Source: a virus
Reading direction: 5' to 3' (one strand)
UHGV virus genome: UHGV-0207032
Length of the DNA: 43,131 nucleotides
Shown here: positions 3,419-11,711 of the stretch, piece by piece
How positions within the stretch are numbered: the stretch's first letter is position 1
Layout of the letters: each line of letters opens with the position of its first letter
Notes under the pieces: generated by a model
Seen by the model: the letters and a program-made list of their open reading frames with translations, nothing else
The model's database searches: none
Told to the model about the DNA's origin: nothing
Program-made: the position numbers and the translations under genes

Positions 3419-3754
3419 ATGGAAGCATTACAGGATGTATTGTTAAACTTGTTGATTGTCGTTGTTGGTTTGGCGACAACTTTCATCGGACAAAAAGGAA
3501 CGGCATATTTGAAGAAGAAAGGTGTCTTAGCTCAGTTGGAAAGCAAGAAAAACTATGTGGCGATCGTTGTATCAGCAGTTCAGCAAGTATACGCAGAAGC
3601 AAATGGAGATGCTAAGTTGCAAGAAGCGAAAGTTCAACTTATTGATTTATTTAATAAGAACGGTATTAAGTTTACTGAAGACGAGTTGGACCTACTGATT
3701 GAGTCAGCGGTTAAGGGAATGAAAGACGGAGTAAAACAAGGAGTGGCTGAATAA
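3419..3754 (+). CDS. Putative holin
   Basis: 111 aa with a single N-terminal TM (LLNLLIVVVGLATTFIG) and a charged C-terminus; immediately upstream of the endolysin and translationally coupled to the previous gene. Confidence 0.5.
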   Translation: MEALQDVLLNLLIVVVGLATTFIGQKGTAYLKKKGVLAQLESKKNYVAIVVSAVQQVYAEANGDAKLQEAKVQLIDLFNKNGIKFTEDELDLLIESAVKGMKDGVKQGVAE

Positions 3755-3789: not shown

Positions 3790-4764
3790 ATGACAATCCA
3801 ATCAGTACACGCAGGACATGGCGGAAAGAAAAACGGAAATGCATGGACAGATCCAGGAGCGGTAGGCAACGGTTATAAAGAAGCGGATGTAGCACGTACA
3901 ATCACTGATTTAATGGTCAAGAAAACTGGTGCTAAGAACGTTACCGATAATACAAGCTCGACATCGAATGGGATTATCAATAATGTAGCAGCGAACATCA
4001 ACAAATGCGCTGACGGTTGGCAAATTTCTAACCACTTGAATGCCTTCAACGGAAAAGCTACGGGCGTGGAAGTCTTATATGGTTCAGCAAGCAACAAAGC
4101 AACAGCTGCTAAGGTATCTGCCGCAATTGCCAAAACATTAGGTTTAGTTGATCGTGGCGCCAAAGATGGCTCTTGGCTGGGAATCGCTCGTAACTCGGGA
4201 TCAGGTAAAAAAGTCCTGTTGATCGAATGGGGATTTATCGACAACGCATCCGATATGAAAGCTTTATTCGGTAAAATGGATGCAGCAGTTAATGCGGCGC
4301 TGGCTGTGTTCGGATATTCTGCAAATTCATCTAGCAACAACAATACATCCACAAGCAAGCCAGCTGCTTCAACAAGTTTTAAAGTAGGAGACAAGGTGAA
4401 AATCATTGATGCGCTATACAAGGATAGTACAGGAGCTGGGCGTTCGACTGCTAGTCGTGGAAAAACAGCTACAATCAAGCGTATAGTCAGCGGGAACAAG
4501 CCATATCTTATCGACAGCCTCGGATGGGCGCATAAGAACGACATTCAGCTTGTGACAAGTAGTAATGCGACATACAAAGTTGGCGATACTGTGACCGTTC
4601 AAAGCTTCGCAACAAACTACCAAACTGGACAAAAGATTCCGAATTGGGTTAAAGGACAGAAGTACAAAATTAAGAAAGTAAAATCTGTTAACCAATCGAG
4701 ATCTAAAAAGGCATATTTGCTGGACGATGTAAATTCGTGGTTTCTCGAACAAGATATTAAGTAA
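3790..4764 (+). CDS. Endolysin: N-acetylmuramoyl-L-alanine amidase (Amidase_3-like) with two C-terminal cell-wall-binding repeats
   Basis: N-terminus HAGHGGKKNG..DPGAVGNG..E, later LIEWGFIDN, matching the Amidase_3 zinc-amidase pattern; C-terminus holds two ~60-aa repeats (KVGDKVKIID.. / YKVGDTVTVQ..); strong RBS AAGGAGGAA. Confidence 0.85.
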   Translation: MTIQSVHAGHGGKKNGNAWTDPGAVGNGYKEADVARTITDLMVKKTGAKNVTDNTSSTSNGIINNVAANINKCADGWQISNHLNAFNGKATGVEVLYGSASNKATAAKVSAAIAKTLGLVDRGAKDGSWLGIARNSGSGKKVLLIEWGFIDNASDMKALFGKMDAAVNAALAVFGYSANSSSNNNTSTSKPAASTSFKVGDKVKIIDALYKDSTGAGRSTASRGKTATIKRIVSGNKPYLIDSLGWAHKNDIQLVTSSNATYKVGDTVTVQSFATNYQTGQKIPNWVKGQKYKIKKVKSVNQSRSKKAYLLDDVNSWFLEQDIK

Positions 4765-5063: not shown

Positions 5064-5097
5064 GGTCCACTCTATCATAACTAGGGTGGATTTTTTG
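5064..5097 (+). terminator. Terminator-like hairpin
   Basis: GGTCCAC..GTGGATT stem (two G-U pairs) then TTTTTTGTTG. Confidence 0.35.
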
Positions 5098-5176: not shown

Positions 5177-5207
5177 AGCCCACTTTCTCCAAGGTGGGTT
5201 GTTTTTG
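5177..5207 (+). terminator. Terminator-like hairpin
   Basis: AGCCCAC..GTGGGTT stem then GTTTTTG. Confidence 0.35.
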
Positions 5208-5313
5208 AGCAAATGGTTTGAAAGATTTGGAAATAGTTAATATTATGAAATCTCCTTATAAAAAACTTTTTCATCTAATTGTGCCACTCCTCTCCGGAAG
5301 TGGTTGCTTGTTG

Positions 5314-5342
5314 TTGAAATGCAAACTGATGTTTGGTATAAT
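5314..5342 (+). promoter_or_regulatory. Consensus sigma-A promoter for the 3-gene accessory operon
   Basis: TTGAAA (5314-5319), 17-bp spacer, TATAAT (5337-5342); ~120 bp upstream of ATG 5460, which has RBS GTGAGGA. Confidence 0.6.
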
Positions 5343-5459
5343 TGCCACATAATCCTCATACGATTATATCTGCTATAGGAAGTCTTAGAAAACGCTTGTT
5401 TTTGAGGCTTCCTTTTGGTTTAATTTAATTAGCGGATAATTGCAAAGTGAGGATTATTT

Positions 5460-6527
5460 ATGGAATATACAAAAAAAATGTTAGAAAATAAACTAAACGA
5501 GATGAGCAAGGCTCAAAAGAAAGAACTCAATAAAGTATTTAAAGCAAATTCATCATTTTCAGAAGCATATTTTGAAGATATTGAAGAAGCACTTGAATCC
5601 AATGAAGCAATTGAGAATATTATTCAATCATTAAATCAATTTCTATTTATTGATAAGTACAAATACTCAGCAATATTTGAAGTTGTCAATAATGAAAAAC
5701 TAAGTTTTGAACAAATATTATCAAGAGTGCCTGTAGAATCAATAGATAACAAAAAGATTCAAAACTTAAATGACGAAAAATTAGGTTTTATGCGTAATGA
5801 TAATGATTTTGCTATATATTATCCTATTTATACAAAATTTGAAGATGATAATGGTAATTTAATAGATATTCAGAATTTTAATGGTATGCTCTTTAGCTTT
5901 TATCAAATAGATGAAAGGGTTTTTGTAGAAATCTGTATTTCTAGTATTAAATTAATGTATAGAGGTGACGATCCAGATTATTTTGGCACTATGATTAGTT
6001 TGGTCAAGTCAAGTATAACAAGAATTATCTCTTTAAAATTGGTGCCTTTAGATTTTAGTGATTTAGTATATTCTTTATCAGAAGATAAGAATCATCCAAT
6101 TATAAGAGGAACAGGCCAAAATATGTACACCAAGAAAAGAGCACAAGCAACGCTTACTAGTGGTAATTCTATTGATTTTGTTATCCCAATTCTAGGTGAG
6201 CTTGAGGAATTCATGGAATCAAAGAAAATCCATTTTGAAGCCAATAAAGAAACAAGACTATTACAGACAGAATTGCTAAACTTTATTCATGAAATAAAGT
6301 TTAATTCTCATTATTCATGGATTAATCTAACATGGGGCCAAAAAGACCTCCCTAAAAGCAGATTAATTGAAATCAAGTATTTATTTGATGGAGGATACAC
6401 ACTGCTTAGTTATTATAGTCATCTTTTAGGAAGAGAGGGAATGCGATATGCCACCAGAAAATTACTCGAAGAATTTATTGTCTACCAATCTCTTGAAAGA
6501 ATTGAAGAAAATGAATTTGTCATATAA
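5460..6527 (+). CDS. Hypothetical protein A of candidate defence operon (355 aa, no recognisable domain)
   Basis: ORF with RBS; ~28-30% GC, well below the phage backbone; N-terminal helical/coiled region; no Walker A or nucleotidyltransferase motif seen by eye. Confidence 0.6.
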   Translation: MEYTKKMLENKLNEMSKAQKKELNKVFKANSSFSEAYFEDIEEALESNEAIENIIQSLNQFLFIDKYKYSAIFEVVNNEKLSFEQILSRVPVESIDNKKIQNLNDEKLGFMRNDNDFAIYYPIYTKFEDDNGNLIDIQNFNGMLFSFYQIDERVFVEICISSIKLMYRGDDPDYFGTMISLVKSSITRIISLKLVPLDFSDLVYSLSEDKNHPIIRGTGQNMYTKKRAQATLTSGNSIDFVIPILGELEEFMESKKIHFEANKETRLLQTELLNFIHEIKFNSHYSWINLTWGQKDLPKSRLIEIKYLFDGGYTLLSYYSHLLGREGMRYATRKLLEEFIVYQSLERIEENEFVI

Positions 6528-6828
6528 TGAAGAACGACTTGTTAACGATATTTCAACTTATAACATAAATGAATATATCTATATTTCTTCGTTCAAAAGG
6601 AAGCATAATTTATCATACGATGATACGATTAAAATTTGTCGACTATGTATTAAAATGAATATTTTGAGAGAAGTATTTGTTGTTTCCTACAAAGGCAAGT
6701 GGATAGAGAAATACTATAAACTGTCTGAGATACCAAATATTGTATATGATGAAGAAGATGGTATTGATATATCCGTTAAAGAAGAAAACATATTTACTTG
6801 TTTTGAGGTGATTTCCAATGTTAAGTGA
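6448..6828 (+). CDS. Hypothetical small protein B of candidate defence operon
   Basis: ORF overlapping the end of gene A (RBS GAGGGAA before ATG 6448; alternative start at ATG 6511 gives 106 aa); its stop overlaps the start of gene C. Confidence 0.5.
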   Translation: MPPENYSKNLLSTNLLKELKKMNLSYNEERLVNDISTYNINEYIYISSFKRKHNLSYDDTIKICRLCIKMNILREVFVVSYKGKWIEKYYKLSEIPNIVYDEEDGIDISVKEENIFTCFEVISNVK

Positions 6829-7480
6829 GTTAGATCGAACGATAAATTACCTCCAGAAAATTGATACTGAGGATGAAAAAAAAGAATTATTATCTCAATA
6901 TCGTCTAGATAGTAGTTATATTAGCACTCTTAAAAAAGAGATAGAAAATATAGAAAAAGATGAATTTAAGAATTCTAAAGAAAAAGGGGATGCTCTAGAA
7001 AAATTAGCAAAAAATATCTTGACATTTAATAATATGTTTAGTGTTGACTCTAATCTGCATTCTTCAACAAACGAAGTAGATTTAGTATTAACATTGAATC
7101 CTGGAGCAAGGTTAATTTTAAGTACGCTGTATCCAAATTTGAGTAAACTTCAGTATATAGGAGAATGCAAAAACTATAACAAAAAGGTTGATGTTACTTG
7201 GGTTGGGAAAGTCCATTCTCTGTTGAACTTACATAACTTCGATATATGTTTGTTGTTTTCCCGAAAAGGATTTACAGGAAGAAATTGGGATGGTGGAAAA
7301 GGTTTATCCAAAAAAATTGCTCTCAAAGAAAACTTATATGTTATAGATATTAGTTTTGATGATATAAAAAGTCTGGAAGAAGTTTCTGTAATTGAATTGA
7401 TTGACAGTAAGTATCTTGAAATTATTCACGATATAGATTATACAAAATATTTATCAAAACACCCAGCGGAAACAGATTAA
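6818..7480 (+). CDS. PD-(D/E)xK nuclease, Mrr-cat-like restriction-endonuclease fold, with N-terminal coiled-coil extension (protein C of candidate defence operon)
   Basis: RBS GAGGTGA; motif series LEKLAKNIL ... NEVDLVL ... YIGECKNYNKKVDVTWVGKV parallels the Mrr_cat pattern FE.lv..ll / DgGiDl / QcK; 4-nt overlap with gene B. Confidence 0.6.
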   Translation: MLSELDRTINYLQKIDTEDEKKELLSQYRLDSSYISTLKKEIENIEKDEFKNSKEKGDALEKLAKNILTFNNMFSVDSNLHSSTNEVDLVLTLNPGARLILSTLYPNLSKLQYIGECKNYNKKVDVTWVGKVHSLLNLHNFDICLLFSRKGFTGRNWDGGKGLSKKIALKENLYVIDISFDDIKSLEEVSVIELIDSKYLEIIHDIDYTKYLSKHPAETD

Positions 7481-7486
7481 TAACTA

Positions 7487-7535
7487 AAACATACTAAAGC
7501 AGTAGATAATATATCTATAGTTTTAGTATGTTTTT
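7487..7535. terminator. Bidirectional terminator between convergent operons
   Basis: 13-bp perfect inverted repeat AAAACATACTAAA ... TTTAGTATGTTTT flanked by A/T runs. Confidence 0.55.
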
Positions 7536-7571: not shown

Positions 7572-7865
7572 TTATAAACGTAAATAAAAGGGGTCCTCGA
7601 AATCTTCAACACTCGTATCTTCGAAATTACATCTTTCAATGACTTCATGATGATCGCCTCCGTATCGTTGTACATAGTAACTATAACCAGTTTTGCCTAA
7701 AGTGACATCAACATAAAATTCTACACAGCGAGTTCCAAATAAGCATTCTTGAGATTCAGATATACTTTCAGGAAATTCCTGTTCAAACTCTGAATATGAG
7801 ATATACCCTTGTTCATACTGACTTATGATGTTTATTTTTATCAGTCCCTTCGTTCGAAATTCCAT
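7572..7865 (-). CDS. YolD-like small protein (partner of Y-family polymerase)
   Basis: ~98 aa immediately downstream of the umuC-like gene in the same operon, the arrangement seen in B. subtilis uvrX-yolD / yqjW-yqjX; the ORF-track start at 7961 overlaps the polymerase gene, so the internal start MEFRTKG was chosen. Confidence 0.45.
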   Translation of the reverse strand: MEFRTKGLIKINIISQYEQGYISYSEFEQEFPESISESQECLFGTRCVEFYVDVTLGKTGYSYYVQRYGGDHHEVIERCNFEDTSVEDFEDPFYLRL

Positions 7866-9177
7866 CCATGCCGCCTGCGTGACCACCAACCAGTTTACTT
7901 CTTGCAATCGCACGAGCGCCTTCAAGTTTGCTATTAGCATGAACAATAGAAGTAAATCCATACTTTTCCCTTATCTTATCAATGATCTTGTCTAGCTTCA
8001 TTTGCTTTATCTGCTCCTCAGCATCAGCAAATAAATCAAGCTGAATACTTGATGTGTAAATCAATTTTGAATAAGTGATACCAACGTGACGAACCACTTG
8101 GCCAGTATAATATTTACGAAATAGGAACAGTGCGTGCGACACCAATACTTTTGTGTTATCTGTTGGTGGGACAGTCATTTGTCTAGAGAATCCTTTCTGT
8201 GTTTCTCCAAACGCAACACCAATGTAAATGGAAACGCAAGAAGTTTGACAATGATGTCTTCGTATCCTTGCAGCAACCTGTTCCGCCATCTCTTTAACAA
8301 CAATTTCGATTTCATCTTGTAAATAATAATTCCTGTTTAGCACTTGACTATTTCCATAACTTTTATCTCTTGTCTGAGGAGCTGGCTCAGAAATAATCGT
8401 CCGATCAATTCCATTCGCGTGATGATATAACTGCTCACCAATAATTCCCATTCGACTTCGCAACAAATCGGGGTTAGCCTTTGCGAGTTGCTCAATCGTT
8501 TCTATTCCCATTCGCTCAAGTCGTTTTTGTGTGCGTGATCCAATGCCCCAAAATTCTGTGATCGGAGAGATGTTCCAAACCTTGCTTTTCACGTCTTGAT
8601 AGGTCCACTCTGCAATTAGGGATTTATTATGCTTCGATTCGTTGTCTAATGCTAGTTTGGCTAAAAGAGGATTGTCGCCAATTCCTACTGTCACATAGAG
8701 CTTCGTCGTGTCATATACATCACGTTGAATCATCTTAGCTAGTCGCCATCGTCTTTCGCTTCGAGACAAGCTTTTGTCTGGGACAAACAAGTTCAGTGAT
8801 TTAGTTACGTCCATCATTGATTCATCAATAGAGTAGAGGAGTAGATCCTCATCGGCTACATATTTTCTAAATACATTGTTTACTTTCAAATTTTCTTTTA
8901 TATATAAGTTCATGCGTGGAGGGACCTTGAATAGGAGGGGATGGTTCGGTAAATTATCAGCACGAGTAACATTTGAAATGCCTAACTTCTTTTTCGCCAA
9001 AGGAGAAGCGGCAAGGACCAACCCGTTTCCTGTATTATCCGATTGAGACATGACTACAAGCATAGTTTTCATTGGGTGAAATCCACGTTGAACACACTCA
9101 ACCGAAGCATAAAATGATTTTACATCAATAAAAAGAATGTCACGTTTGGGTTCAAGTTCGTATCGAAAACTTCCCAT
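7813..9177 (-). CDS. Y-family (UmuC/DinB-like) translesion DNA polymerase
   Basis: N-terminal motifs ILFIDVKSFYASVE, LAASPLAKKKLGI and a polymerase-associated C-terminal region; 454 aa; RBS GGAGTGAG; Cheo box upstream. Confidence 0.85.
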   Translation of the reverse strand: MGSFRYELEPKRDILFIDVKSFYASVECVQRGFHPMKTMLVVMSQSDNTGNGLVLAASPLAKKKLGISNVTRADNLPNHPLLFKVPPRMNLYIKENLKVNNVFRKYVADEDLLLYSIDESMMDVTKSLNLFVPDKSLSRSERRWRLAKMIQRDVYDTTKLYVTVGIGDNPLLAKLALDNESKHNKSLIAEWTYQDVKSKVWNISPITEFWGIGSRTQKRLERMGIETIEQLAKANPDLLRSRMGIIGEQLYHHANGIDRTIISEPAPQTRDKSYGNSQVLNRNYYLQDEIEIVVKEMAEQVAARIRRHHCQTSCVSIYIGVAFGETQKGFSRQMTVPPTDNTKVLVSHALFLFRKYYTGQVVRHVGITYSKLIYTSSIQLDLFADAEEQIKQMKLDKIIDKIREKYGFTSIVHANSKLEGARAIARSKLVGGHAGGMDGISNEGTDKNKHHKSV

Positions 9178-9204: not shown

Positions 9205-9218
9205 CGAACTTACGTTCG
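9205..9218 (-). promoter_or_regulatory. LexA (Cheo/SOS) box CGAACTTACGTTCG
   Basis: Exact match to the Firmicute LexA operator consensus CGAAC-N4-GTTCG, centred ~35 bp upstream of the polymerase start codon at 9177. Confidence 0.65.
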
Positions 9219-10580: not shown

Positions 10581-11711
10581 TTAGTAGATATTTTCCATAA
10601 TGTTTTTAATAGCGGTATTATCCTTTTCTTCTAACTCTTTGATTGTATGCAAATATGTTTTCATAGTTGTGTTGATATCAGCATGTCCTAATCTTTTTGA
10701 AACTGATAGTATGTTTACTCCTTTATATAAAAGCACCGAAGCATGTGTATGGCGCAAGCCGTGTATGCTAAGTGGCTTATCTATACCAAGTTCTTTTAAC
10801 CTTACTCGTAACTGTTTTGTTACAGCGTTTTGTGAGACCGGTCCATTCTTAATATTGAAAAAAATAAAATTATTAGGATTATCAATACCGATGTTACTAA
10901 TAAGTTGCTCCTGATCGCTTTTATATTTTTTTAGAATAGATAGTGTTTTGTTGTCGATCGGAATTTTTCTTAGCGATGATGGATTTTTAGTTGGTCCGAA
11001 TTTGTTTAACTTATAAAGCCACGTCTTATTAACATCTACTATTCCATTATCAAAATCAATATCAGACCATGTTAATCCCATAAGCTCAGCTAATCGCATA
11101 CCTGTTGCCCCAGCAAAGAAAAGCAAGAATGGGGATGCATAGGTGGGATTTATTCGAGTCTCTAAGAGTTGCATTAGTGCCTGAAACTCGTCGTAGTTAA
11201 GGTATTTATTCTCTGTAGGCTTGCTAGGAAGTCCTTTAATCACTACGTTATAAGTGGGGTTCCTGAGAACTAATCCTTGTTCTACCGCATCATCTAGCGC
11301 TGATTTTATATGATTGTTTAATTTAGCAGTTGTAGATCTGGCATGTGTTTTAGCGTAATTATTCAACGATTTTTGATAGTTTGCTTTATCTAGGCTTGAT
11401 AATGTGGTATAAGGAAACAATTCTTTTATAGCACTCAATGTGTTTAAATATTTCCTGTAAGTTATTTCAGATACATAATTTTCTTTGTACAATTCTATCC
11501 AGTTCTTGAAAAAATCATATAACGTAAGGCTATTTTTGTCAGCCTGATATCCTCGGCCTAGGTTGTAAGACATTTCTATTTCAGCTTCCTTGGCTTCAGC
11601 TTTGGTTTTAAAGCCGCCTTTTCTTATTTTGCTATATTCACCAGTAGCTTTTTTATATGATATTTCAAATTGCCATGATTTGCCACGCTTTCTTACTGCC
11701 AATTGATTCAA
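10581..11711 (-). CDS. int: Tyrosine integrase (phage integrase family)
   Basis: 376 aa; N-terminal SAM-like arm-binding region; C-terminal catalytic residues in ...GMRLAEL..., ...HGLRHTHAS..., ...LGHADINTTMKTYLH (R..HxxR..Y pattern). Confidence 0.9.
   Translation of the reverse strand: MNQLAVRKRGKSWQFEISYKKATGEYSKIRKGGFKTKAEAKEAEIEMSYNLGRGYQADKNSLTLYDFFKNWIELYKENYVSEITYRKYLNTLSAIKELFPYTTLSSLDKANYQKSLNNYAKTHARSTTAKLNNHIKSALDDAVEQGLVLRNPTYNVVIKGLPSKPTENKYLNYDEFQALMQLLETRINPTYASPFLLFFAGATGMRLAELMGLTWSDIDFDNGIVDVNKTWLYKLNKFGPTKNPSSLRKIPIDNKTLSILKKYKSDQEQLISNIGIDNPNNFIFFNIKNGPVSQNAVTKQLRVRLKELGIDKPLSIHGLRHTHASVLLYKGVNILSVSKRLGHADINTTMKTYLHTIKELEEKDNTAIKNIMENIY

Follow-up and report, generated by a model that had tools for sequence, protein, structure and literature searches.

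An Undescribed Three-Gene Cassette of Firmicutes Prophages With a Predicted PD-(D/E)xK Nuclease and an RdgC-Like Partner as a Candidate Defence System

Identification and Conservation of the Three-Gene Cassette

In the 43,131-nt stretch of the virus genome UHGV-0207032 (in the following called the window), three overlapping genes, here named A, B, and C, are located behind the endolysin gene, the last of them coding for a predicted nuclease. A-B-C is a real and widely conserved three-gene cassette of Firmicutes prophages. It is unnamed in the searched libraries (models up to 2023) and in the literature, and its two partner families, A and B, are without a described function. On balance, and with considerable doubt, the cassette is probably an undescribed defence system directed against phages or other mobile elements, in which A and B form a DNA sensor that controls the nuclease C. 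The following features make up the cassette and its borders (positions of the window):

5460–6527, plus strand: gene A, 355 amino acids (aa)
6448–6828, plus strand: gene B, 126 aa, overlapping A by 80 nt in the +1 frame
6818–7480, plus strand: gene C, 220 aa
7486–7535, plus strand: AT-rich terminator hairpin with perfect 13-bp arms and an inner 7-bp stem, followed by a U-run
5064–5092 and 5177–5200, plus strand: two terminator-like hairpins between the endolysin gene and the cassette promoter, from a consensus scan

An initial annotation, made from the sequence alone, had proposed these three overlapping open reading frames (ORFs), and all of them are present at the given positions in the ORF list. 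For B it had left two start codons to choose from, 6448 and 6511. The former is favoured by a GAGGG Shine-Dalgarno sequence 9 nt upstream as well as by the alignment of the homologues, and is most likely the translation start as far as the sequence can tell. The operon has a GC content of 28.3% compared to 38.8% in the remaining window and is the lowest-GC 2-kb stretch of the 43-kb window (0.4th percentile), so that the low-GC block described before was found by measurement as well. The same applies to the inverted-repeat terminator proposed to close the operon, the arms of which (7486–7498 and 7522–7534) reach −21.6 kcal/mol (z = −6.2) and are followed by a stretch of uridines. The consensus scan returned five terminator-like sites in the region, whereas 0.8 were expected. 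On the upstream side, three hairpins had been described as insulating the cassette from the lysis genes. All three exist, but the third one (5377–5413) is no insulator, because it lies downstream of the promoter and inside the 5′ leader.

Homologous loci were collected by a scan of viral contigs with the C profile, which gave 52 loci, and by protein look-ups, which brought the number to 59. A and B are located immediately upstream of C in 57 of these 59 loci (jackhmmer). One of the exceptions is cut off at C (L034). The other and sole clear one (L051, 4369–6636) is an orphan C without A or B, which adjoins an ORF of 493 aa; this neighbour was considered as an A-B fusion and rejected, as it is a serine recombinase.

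The overlaps of the genes are conserved as well. Throughout the 30 distinct loci, B starts 38 to 110 nt inside the 3′ end of A and always in the +1 frame, the GGAG preceding this start falls in the conserved A motif G-x-E-R/G-M, and C overlaps or abuts B. Since the Shine-Dalgarno sequence and the start codon of B are thus placed inside the most conserved C-terminal motif of A, the overlapping stretch is under double constraint. The tight overlaps suggest a fixed stoichiometry of the three proteins. Furthermore, in one locus (L054, 4571–5833) a single ORF of 420 aa is recognised by the profiles of A (E = 9e-25) and of B (E = 1e-11) and directly precedes a C homologue. This natural A-B fusion argues for a physical interaction of the two proteins. 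The three genes were thus rightly taken for a genuine operon.

In a tblastn search of 50,697 phage records, A and C were found together in 7 Staphylococcus phage records (Henu2, SAP71, and others), and C was found in 7 Clostridium tetani phage records. In the Staphylococcus phage Henu2, the triad codes for proteins of about 350, 121, and 227 aa, is located directly after the endolysin gene, and is followed by the integrase gene. In the C. tetani phage phiCT9441A, the proteins have about 350, 122, and 268 aa, and the triad is also found directly after the endolysin gene, near attR. The same position after the endolysin is occupied in a Turicibacter prophage and in the window. In addition, the triad was identified in small recombinase-bearing islands of Bacillus cereus and C. 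ihumii and in the chromosome of E. hirae. An exhaustive HMMER search of 1.84 billion proteins yielded 148 representatives of A at 50% identity, nearly all of them 340–390 aa long. The named hosts, Enterococcus, Staphylococcus, Clostridium, Turicibacter, Bacillus, Paenibacillus, Lysinibacillus, and Shouchella, all belong to the Bacillota. A-B-C is a mobile, self-contained accessory cargo of Bacillota prophages and small integrative islands.

Domain Content of the Three Proteins

The C protein comprises an N-terminal extension (residues 1–46) and a PD-(D/E)xK core (residues 53–178) with E61, D88, and E116-x-K118. In an alignment of 44 sequences G57, L60, and E61, N85, E86, and D88 as well as E116, C117, K118, N119, and Y120 are invariant, which agrees with the Mrr-cat-like motif series first read from the sequence. 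The AlphaFold2 (AF2) model of C has a predicted local distance difference test score (pLDDT) of 89.5 and shows an alpha-beta-beta-beta-alpha-beta core, in which E61 lies on the helix 53–68, D88 opens the strand 86–93, and E116 and K118 lie on the strand 113–118. The nearest solved structures, EcoT38I, SfsA, the nuclease domain of Shedu, and CdiA-CT, are distant ones (E ≥ 0.008). Judging from the core of the model, the PD-(D/E)xK structural neighbours, and the invariance in 44 sequences, C is a restriction-fold nuclease of the PD-(D/E)xK type with conserved catalytic residues, as had been proposed, and it is presumed to be the effector of the cassette. The N-terminal extension had been described as a coiled coil of about 60 aa. 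Instead, the model shows three short helices (4–14, 18–26, and 32–46), which are without a domain match, and no long coiled coil.

Among the homologues of C, at least 9 have a precomputed match to PF04471 (Mrr_cat), and the threshold of this Pfam family is passed by several of them. A comparison of the 44 homologues with PADLOC gave weak matches to PDC-S02 for 10 of them (best E = 2e-4), matches to a generic PD_DExK model for 5, and a weak match to LmuC for one. Four C homologues (P0027, P0028, P0031, and P0045) bear the NCBI name "acetylglutamate semialdehyde dehydrogenase". The name is clearly wrong and is spreading through genomes of Bacillus, Paenibacillus, and Turicibacter.

The A protein superposes significantly in three dimensions on RdgC and its known structural relatives and can be placed in the RdgC/RexA/Iml3/Chl4 fold class. 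In the crystal-structure paper on RexA, the structural relatives given for this protein are RdgC, 3OH8, Iml3, and Chl4. The initial annotation had seen no domain in A, a view that has to be given up, as A is RdgC-like and its fold class includes the lambda protein RexA. To this fold A adds a bundle of helices at the N-terminus and a long helix at the C-terminus, and it has no conserved residues of catalytic look. A is presumed to be a DNA-binding sensor or scaffold.

At the sequence level, membership in the RdgC family was rejected, since neither a Pfam nor a PADLOC family recurs among 80 A members scanned singly (E ≤ 1) and the comparison with RdgC of Escherichia coli gave an hhalign probability of 0.3% and no profile-level homology. 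The identity of A and this RdgC is 9%. Hits of the 80 homologues in PADLOC were scattered single matches only. Membership in RexAB was rejected as well, as a membrane partner is missing (0 predicted transmembrane (TM) segments in A, B, and C) and the hhalign probability of A and RexA is 0.8%. RexA is absent from the top structural matches of A, and a Foldseek search returned nothing significant for A. Searches of the PDB sequences with the profiles of A and C gave nothing meaningful, and the A profile retrieved four proteins from a word-indexed protein database, none of them informatively named. The invariant A motif LPILGEL aligns locally, at a level that is not significant, with LPVFGDIL in the dimerisation domain of RexA.

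In one E. hirae genome (L003, 3283–5424), an insertion sequence (IS) with an rve-family transposase and an HTH_Tnp_1 ORF is located in the 3′ end of A, and B and C are intact. This represents a natural knock-out of A which is tolerated by the host. For a dispensable accessory cargo such a disruption is to be expected.

The alignment of the B proteins shows a conserved winged-helix-like N-terminal half, which is followed in most homologues by a CxxC...CxxC zinc ribbon. The matches of B to winged-helix proteins are weak ones, namely eS25 (E = 1.5e-4) and Fur (E = 5e-3) for the B profile in PDB sequences, and TrmB. Of 25 B members scanned with Pfam, 6 match Ribosomal_S25, 3 match FUR, and several match Zn_ribbon, all weakly and below the cut-offs. 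From its sequence, B looks like a winged helix combined with a zinc ribbon and is presumed to be a DNA-binding adaptor; like A, it is not featureless. A motif scan found neither Walker A nor nucleotidyltransferase nor HEPN Rx4-6H motifs in A or B, just as reported at the outset.

Proposed Function and Comparison With Known Systems

Several observations lead to the reading as an accessory defence system. The three genes form a strict triad with overlaps, A and B are fused in one locus, the active site of the nuclease is intact, and the folds of A and, as it seems, of B are those of DNA-binding proteins. Moreover, a methylase is missing, and the cassette occupies mobile accessory positions and resides in a cargo hotspot. 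An anti-phage function is suggested by this context and by the domain logic, and DNA binding by A and B, an A-B-C complex, a trigger, and a defence phenotype are inferred along with it. A might dimerise to a ring or horseshoe and bind DNA without sequence specificity, like RdgC and RexA. Together with B it would sense DNA that is associated with an infection, for instance the incoming genome, free ends, or intermediates of replication and recombination. The A-B complex would then recruit or release C, with the helical N-terminal extension of C as a possible docking element, and C would cut DNA. As an outcome, either the invader would be destroyed or the infected cell would be killed.

Four observations speak against a defence function. 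Firstly, PADLOC v2.0.0, with which the three proteins of the window were checked, gave 0 matches for A, B, and C (E ≤ 1), so that no validated defence family was matched. Secondly, C of the window reaches 18.9 bits on the Pfam family Mrr_cat (E = 0.0017), which is under the gathering score of 21. Thirdly, the zinc-binding cysteines of B are lost in the window copy. The loss comprises all four cysteines at once and is seen in the lineages of the window, E. hirae, Staphylococcus Henu2, and L032/L033, which suggests that the ribbon of B is structurally dispensable or replaced. Fourthly, a restriction gene was found as only 1 of 21 downstream neighbours.

The further name searches point to a cassette outside the named systems. 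Pfam, NCBIfam, and PHROGs gave unknown-function PHROGs and sub-threshold matches only for A, B, and C, and no description of the triad was found in the literature. With names up to 2023 covered, the statement that the cassette does not correspond to a nameable system stands. Membership in Lamassu, Shedu, Hachiman, Abi, PD-T4/T7/Lambda, and PDC was rejected for A, B, and C of the window on the grounds of the PADLOC result.

Among the known systems, RexAB is similar in that it is a prophage accessory cargo which is expressed apart from the lytic genes, as the triad is. Furthermore, A has the fold of RdgC, the structural relative of RexA, and the RexA homologues of mycobacteriophages have 337–372 aa, compared to 355 aa of A. 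However, the triad is without a RexB-like membrane protein and has a nuclease effector and an additional winged-helix protein instead. RdgC of E. coli (PDB 2OWL), a recombination-associated, ring-forming double-stranded DNA-binding protein, is encoded on its own in the chromosome, has no nuclease as a partner, and lacks the extra helical parts at both ends of A. Shedu SduA, Lamassu with an Mrr effector, and Hachiman HamA share with the triad the principle of a restriction-fold nuclease effector that works without methylation and under the control of a sensor, be it separate or fused. Structurally, C resembles the nuclease domain of Shedu weakly (Foldseek E = 0.07, TM-score 0.35–0.40). In contrast to these systems, neither an SMC/ABC ATPase nor a helicase accompanies the triad, and a Walker A motif is present in none of its three proteins.

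With Mrr (PF04471), C has the E...D...ExK core in common, and a cognate methyltransferase is missing in the triad as well. Unlike Mrr, C has no fused N-terminal DNA-recognition domain and is genetically tied to two separate proteins. An assignment of C to the type IV enzymes of the Mrr kind was rejected, as its N-terminus of about 46 residues forms three short helices and contains no fused winged-helix domain. In a wider sense, the cassette could be a type IV-like, methylase-less restriction system in which A and B would read foreign DNA that is modified or marked in another way and C would cleave it, so that the cell survives. This would fit the Mrr_cat-type catalytic core of C, the fold of A, which is that of DNA-binding proteins, the weak winged-helix-like matches of B, and the neighbourhood of the genes, since no methyltransferase was found adjacent to the triad in any locus inspected. 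However, the canonical Mrr has its recognition winged helix in the same polypeptide, whereas C has only the short three-helix extension, and no reader domain for modified bases (SRA, YTH, EVE, or DUF3578) was detected in the triad proteins. A restriction system of this type is rather unlikely and would be a sub-variant of the proposed defence by an A-B sensor and the nuclease C and not a true alternative to it.

Promoter and Leader RNA of the Enterococcus Slot

The transcription signals of the cassette are located in the following positions of the window:

5314–5342, plus strand: sigma-70-type promoter TTGAAA-17-TGgTATAAT with extended TG, 11/12, the best one of the region
5322–5335, plus strand: perfect, operator-like palindrome CAAAC-TGAT-GTTTG in the promoter spacer
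5349–5459, plus strand: structured 5′ leader, defined by its fold and by 22 distinct copies
5349–5358, plus strand: 5′ end of the leader, anti-Shine-Dalgarno sequence AUAAUCCUCA
5366–5374 with 5431–5438, plus strand: leader helix P2
5377–5413, plus strand: terminator-like leader hairpin P3
5413–5424, plus strand: leader U-tract UUUUGGUUUAAU
5449–5457, plus strand: Shine-Dalgarno region GAGGAUUAU, pairing with the 5′ end of the leader

For the leader RNA (5349–5465), a fold of three helices, nested in one another, is predicted (−38 kcal/mol, z = −5.9). In this fold, AUAAUCCUCA and the Shine-Dalgarno region of A are paired with each other, and the middle helix encloses the terminator-like hairpin and the U-tract. 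The promoter and the leader (about 5302–5439 of the window) are also the sole part of the region with a nucleotide-level match in the phage collection. In the Enterococcus phage EG-TP1, the same promoter and leader follow the endolysin gene, but the cargo behind them is a different one and consists of two genes. A structure-aware pattern identified the leader element in 4 Enterococcus genomes and 23 viral contigs, and it is present at the E. hirae triad, too (leader loci: window 5314–5459, L059 5001–5163, L005 4538–4661, L060, and L068–L093).

The folds of the leader copies were judged one sequence at a time; RNAalifold on a MAFFT alignment mis-aligned the variable central hairpin. In 22 distinct copies, P3 has 9–15 pairs (at least 12 in all but one) formed by 17 different sequences, the U-tract UUUUGGUUUAAU is invariant, and the 5′ end pairs in the minimum-energy fold with the Shine-Dalgarno or start region specific for the respective cargo (22/22 in both cases). 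Rfam gave no match for the region or the leader. The conserved leader of roughly 110 nt, with its covarying hairpin P3, looks like an undescribed cis-regulatory RNA, which marks a cargo hotspot of Enterococcus. Since related phages carry other cargos behind the same promoter and leader, a separate acquisition of the triad, which had been suggested earlier, is plausible.

The promoter had been described as a textbook one driving the operon. It is indeed the best promoter of the region, but the palindrome in its spacer, the leader hairpin, and the pairing of the Shine-Dalgarno region indicate that it is not simply constitutive. The expression of the cassette in this Enterococcus phage is probably held low by the leader, which would fit a toxic effector.

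A toxic effector is also the basis of another explanation, that is, a toxin-antitoxin (TA)-like addiction module in which A and/or B would restrain the toxin C, the carrier would be stabilised, and phage exclusion would be incidental. The fixed stoichiometry suggested by the tight overlaps, the location of the cassette, which is always on mobile or accessory DNA, and the double restraint of expression by the leader, which suits a toxic product, are in favour of it. The E. hirae genome with the IS in A can be read in both directions. The knock-out of A is tolerated there, though B and C are intact, but if A were the antitoxin, a disrupted A next to an intact C should be lethal. Moreover, A with its 355 aa and its DNA-binding fold would be an antitoxin of unusual size, and a three-component layout with the nuclease in the last position and without a short labile partner is atypical. 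We give addiction a low probability, and since many defence systems are TA-like, it overlaps with the reading of A-B-C as a defence system.

The slot promoter is found at a fixed distance in 23 distinct upstream sequences. About half of the slot leader copies have a GAAC-N4-GTTC box in the promoter spacer, which we take to be the consensus of the LexA box in Firmicutes. An identical box (GAACTTACGTTC) is located at 9206–9217 of the window, about 30 nt upstream of its umuC-like gene. The palindrome CAAAC-TGAT-GTTTG in the window promoter is a symmetric variant of the GAAC-N4-GTTC box that related leaders have at the same place, and the pattern has 2 matches in the window compared to 0.05 expected. 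Because the window promoter carries this variant, a control of the window's triad by LexA is uncertain.

The box in the slot promoters points to an SOS-timed expression, and with it the cassette could serve the life cycle of the carrier phage itself and not the protection of the host. At the time of the SOS response or induction, the RdgC-like protein would then act on RecA or on recombination, and the nuclease would process or degrade DNA. Alternatively, the cassette would have a RexA-like part in tuning lysis and lysogeny. RdgC is a modulator of RecA. The occurrence of GAAC-N4-GTTC in many related slot promoters, identical to the box before the umuC-like gene of the window, would be in line with such a role, as would the bias that RexA exerts on the lambda switch without the need for RexB (PMC11077077). 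However, the cassette is also found outside recognisable prophages, sits in swappable accessory positions and not in replication or recombination modules, and is absent from most related phages, as the 7 Staphylococcus and 7 Clostridium records among all phage records searched show. In addition, the LexA-type box is tied to the Enterococcus slot and not to the triads of other genera, and in the window it is degenerate. A function in the life cycle of the carrier is very unlikely.

The triads in other genera have leaders which are not consistently structured and are without the GAAC-N4-GTTC box. For this reason, the leader and the LexA-type box are assigned to the Enterococcus slot and not to the triad itself. 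In prophages and genomes of Enterococcus, the slot promoter and leader are followed by at least 10 unrelated cargos. Many of them consist of a soluble protein of about 300–345 aa followed by a multi-TM protein, a layout which is shared with RexAB. In several unrelated two-gene cargos of this kind (L059 5158–6565, L060 3707–5114, L068, L071, L077, L081–L083, L088, and L093), the soluble protein has about 300–325 aa, and the second protein has 150–230 aa with 2–5 predicted TM segments. The cargo of the EG-TP1 gp34/gp33 type was considered as RexAB-like or related to A and rejected, as it gave no PADLOC match and no hhalign signal. For the one cargo pair scanned with PADLOC (L060), no match was found, and no sequence link to A, RexA, or RdgC was detected for the first genes of the slot cargos.

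A more far-reaching reading is speculative and unlikely. According to it, temperate phages would use the RdgC/RexA fold as a general sensor module for infection, which can be combined with different effectors, namely the membrane protein in RexAB and the nuclease, connected via a winged-helix adaptor, in the triad, and the Enterococcus slot would be a dedicated expression platform for defence cargo. If this were the case, the triad would offer a soluble and biochemically tractable route to what Rex-type sensors detect. This question dates from the work on rII and Rex exclusion in the 1950s. The RdgC/RexA fold of A suggests that a nuclease can take the place of the membrane protein as the partner of DNA-binding sensors of the Rex type, and the triad would be a simpler object for studying the recognition of an infection by such sensors.

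Should the triad be a defence system, the known anti-phage proteins of Gram-positive pathogens and of commensals in the gut would be extended by two families without a described function, namely A, with about 148 clusters (50% identity), and its obligate partner B. As the hosts include Enterococcus, Staphylococcus aureus, C. tetani, Turicibacter, and the B. cereus group, the cassette could affect the host range in phage therapy. Finally, the conserved promoter and leader RNA could be used to mine further candidate systems in Enterococcus prophages.

Genomic Neighbourhood of the Cassette

The cassette of the window is flanked by the following genes:

3419–3754: holin gene, upstream of the cassette
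3790–4764: Amidase_3 endolysin gene, directly before the cassette
7813–9177, minus strand: Y-family (UmuC/ImpB-like) polymerase gene, downstream of the cassette
10581–11711, strand opposite to the cassette: tyrosine integrase gene

Past C, the opposite strand of the window codes for a YolD-sized ORF, the Y-family polymerase, a SHOCT protein, the tyrosine integrase, and an ImmA-like protease. In the non-redundant loci, about one third of the upstream neighbours of the triad are cell-wall hydrolases. The downstream neighbours include 5 tyrosine integrases, 2–3 serine recombinases, 3 terminases, 1 type I HsdR, and 1 superantigen. The gene order of the window and the neighbours of the other triads confirm the accessory slot between lysin and integrase in which the cassette had been placed.

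The Y-family polymerase gene and an overlapping upstream ORF of 129 aa are located at 7572–9177 on the minus strand. This ORF has a YolD-like size and no match in Pfam. The two genes make up a second cargo of the region between lysin and integrase, which is apparently under SOS control.

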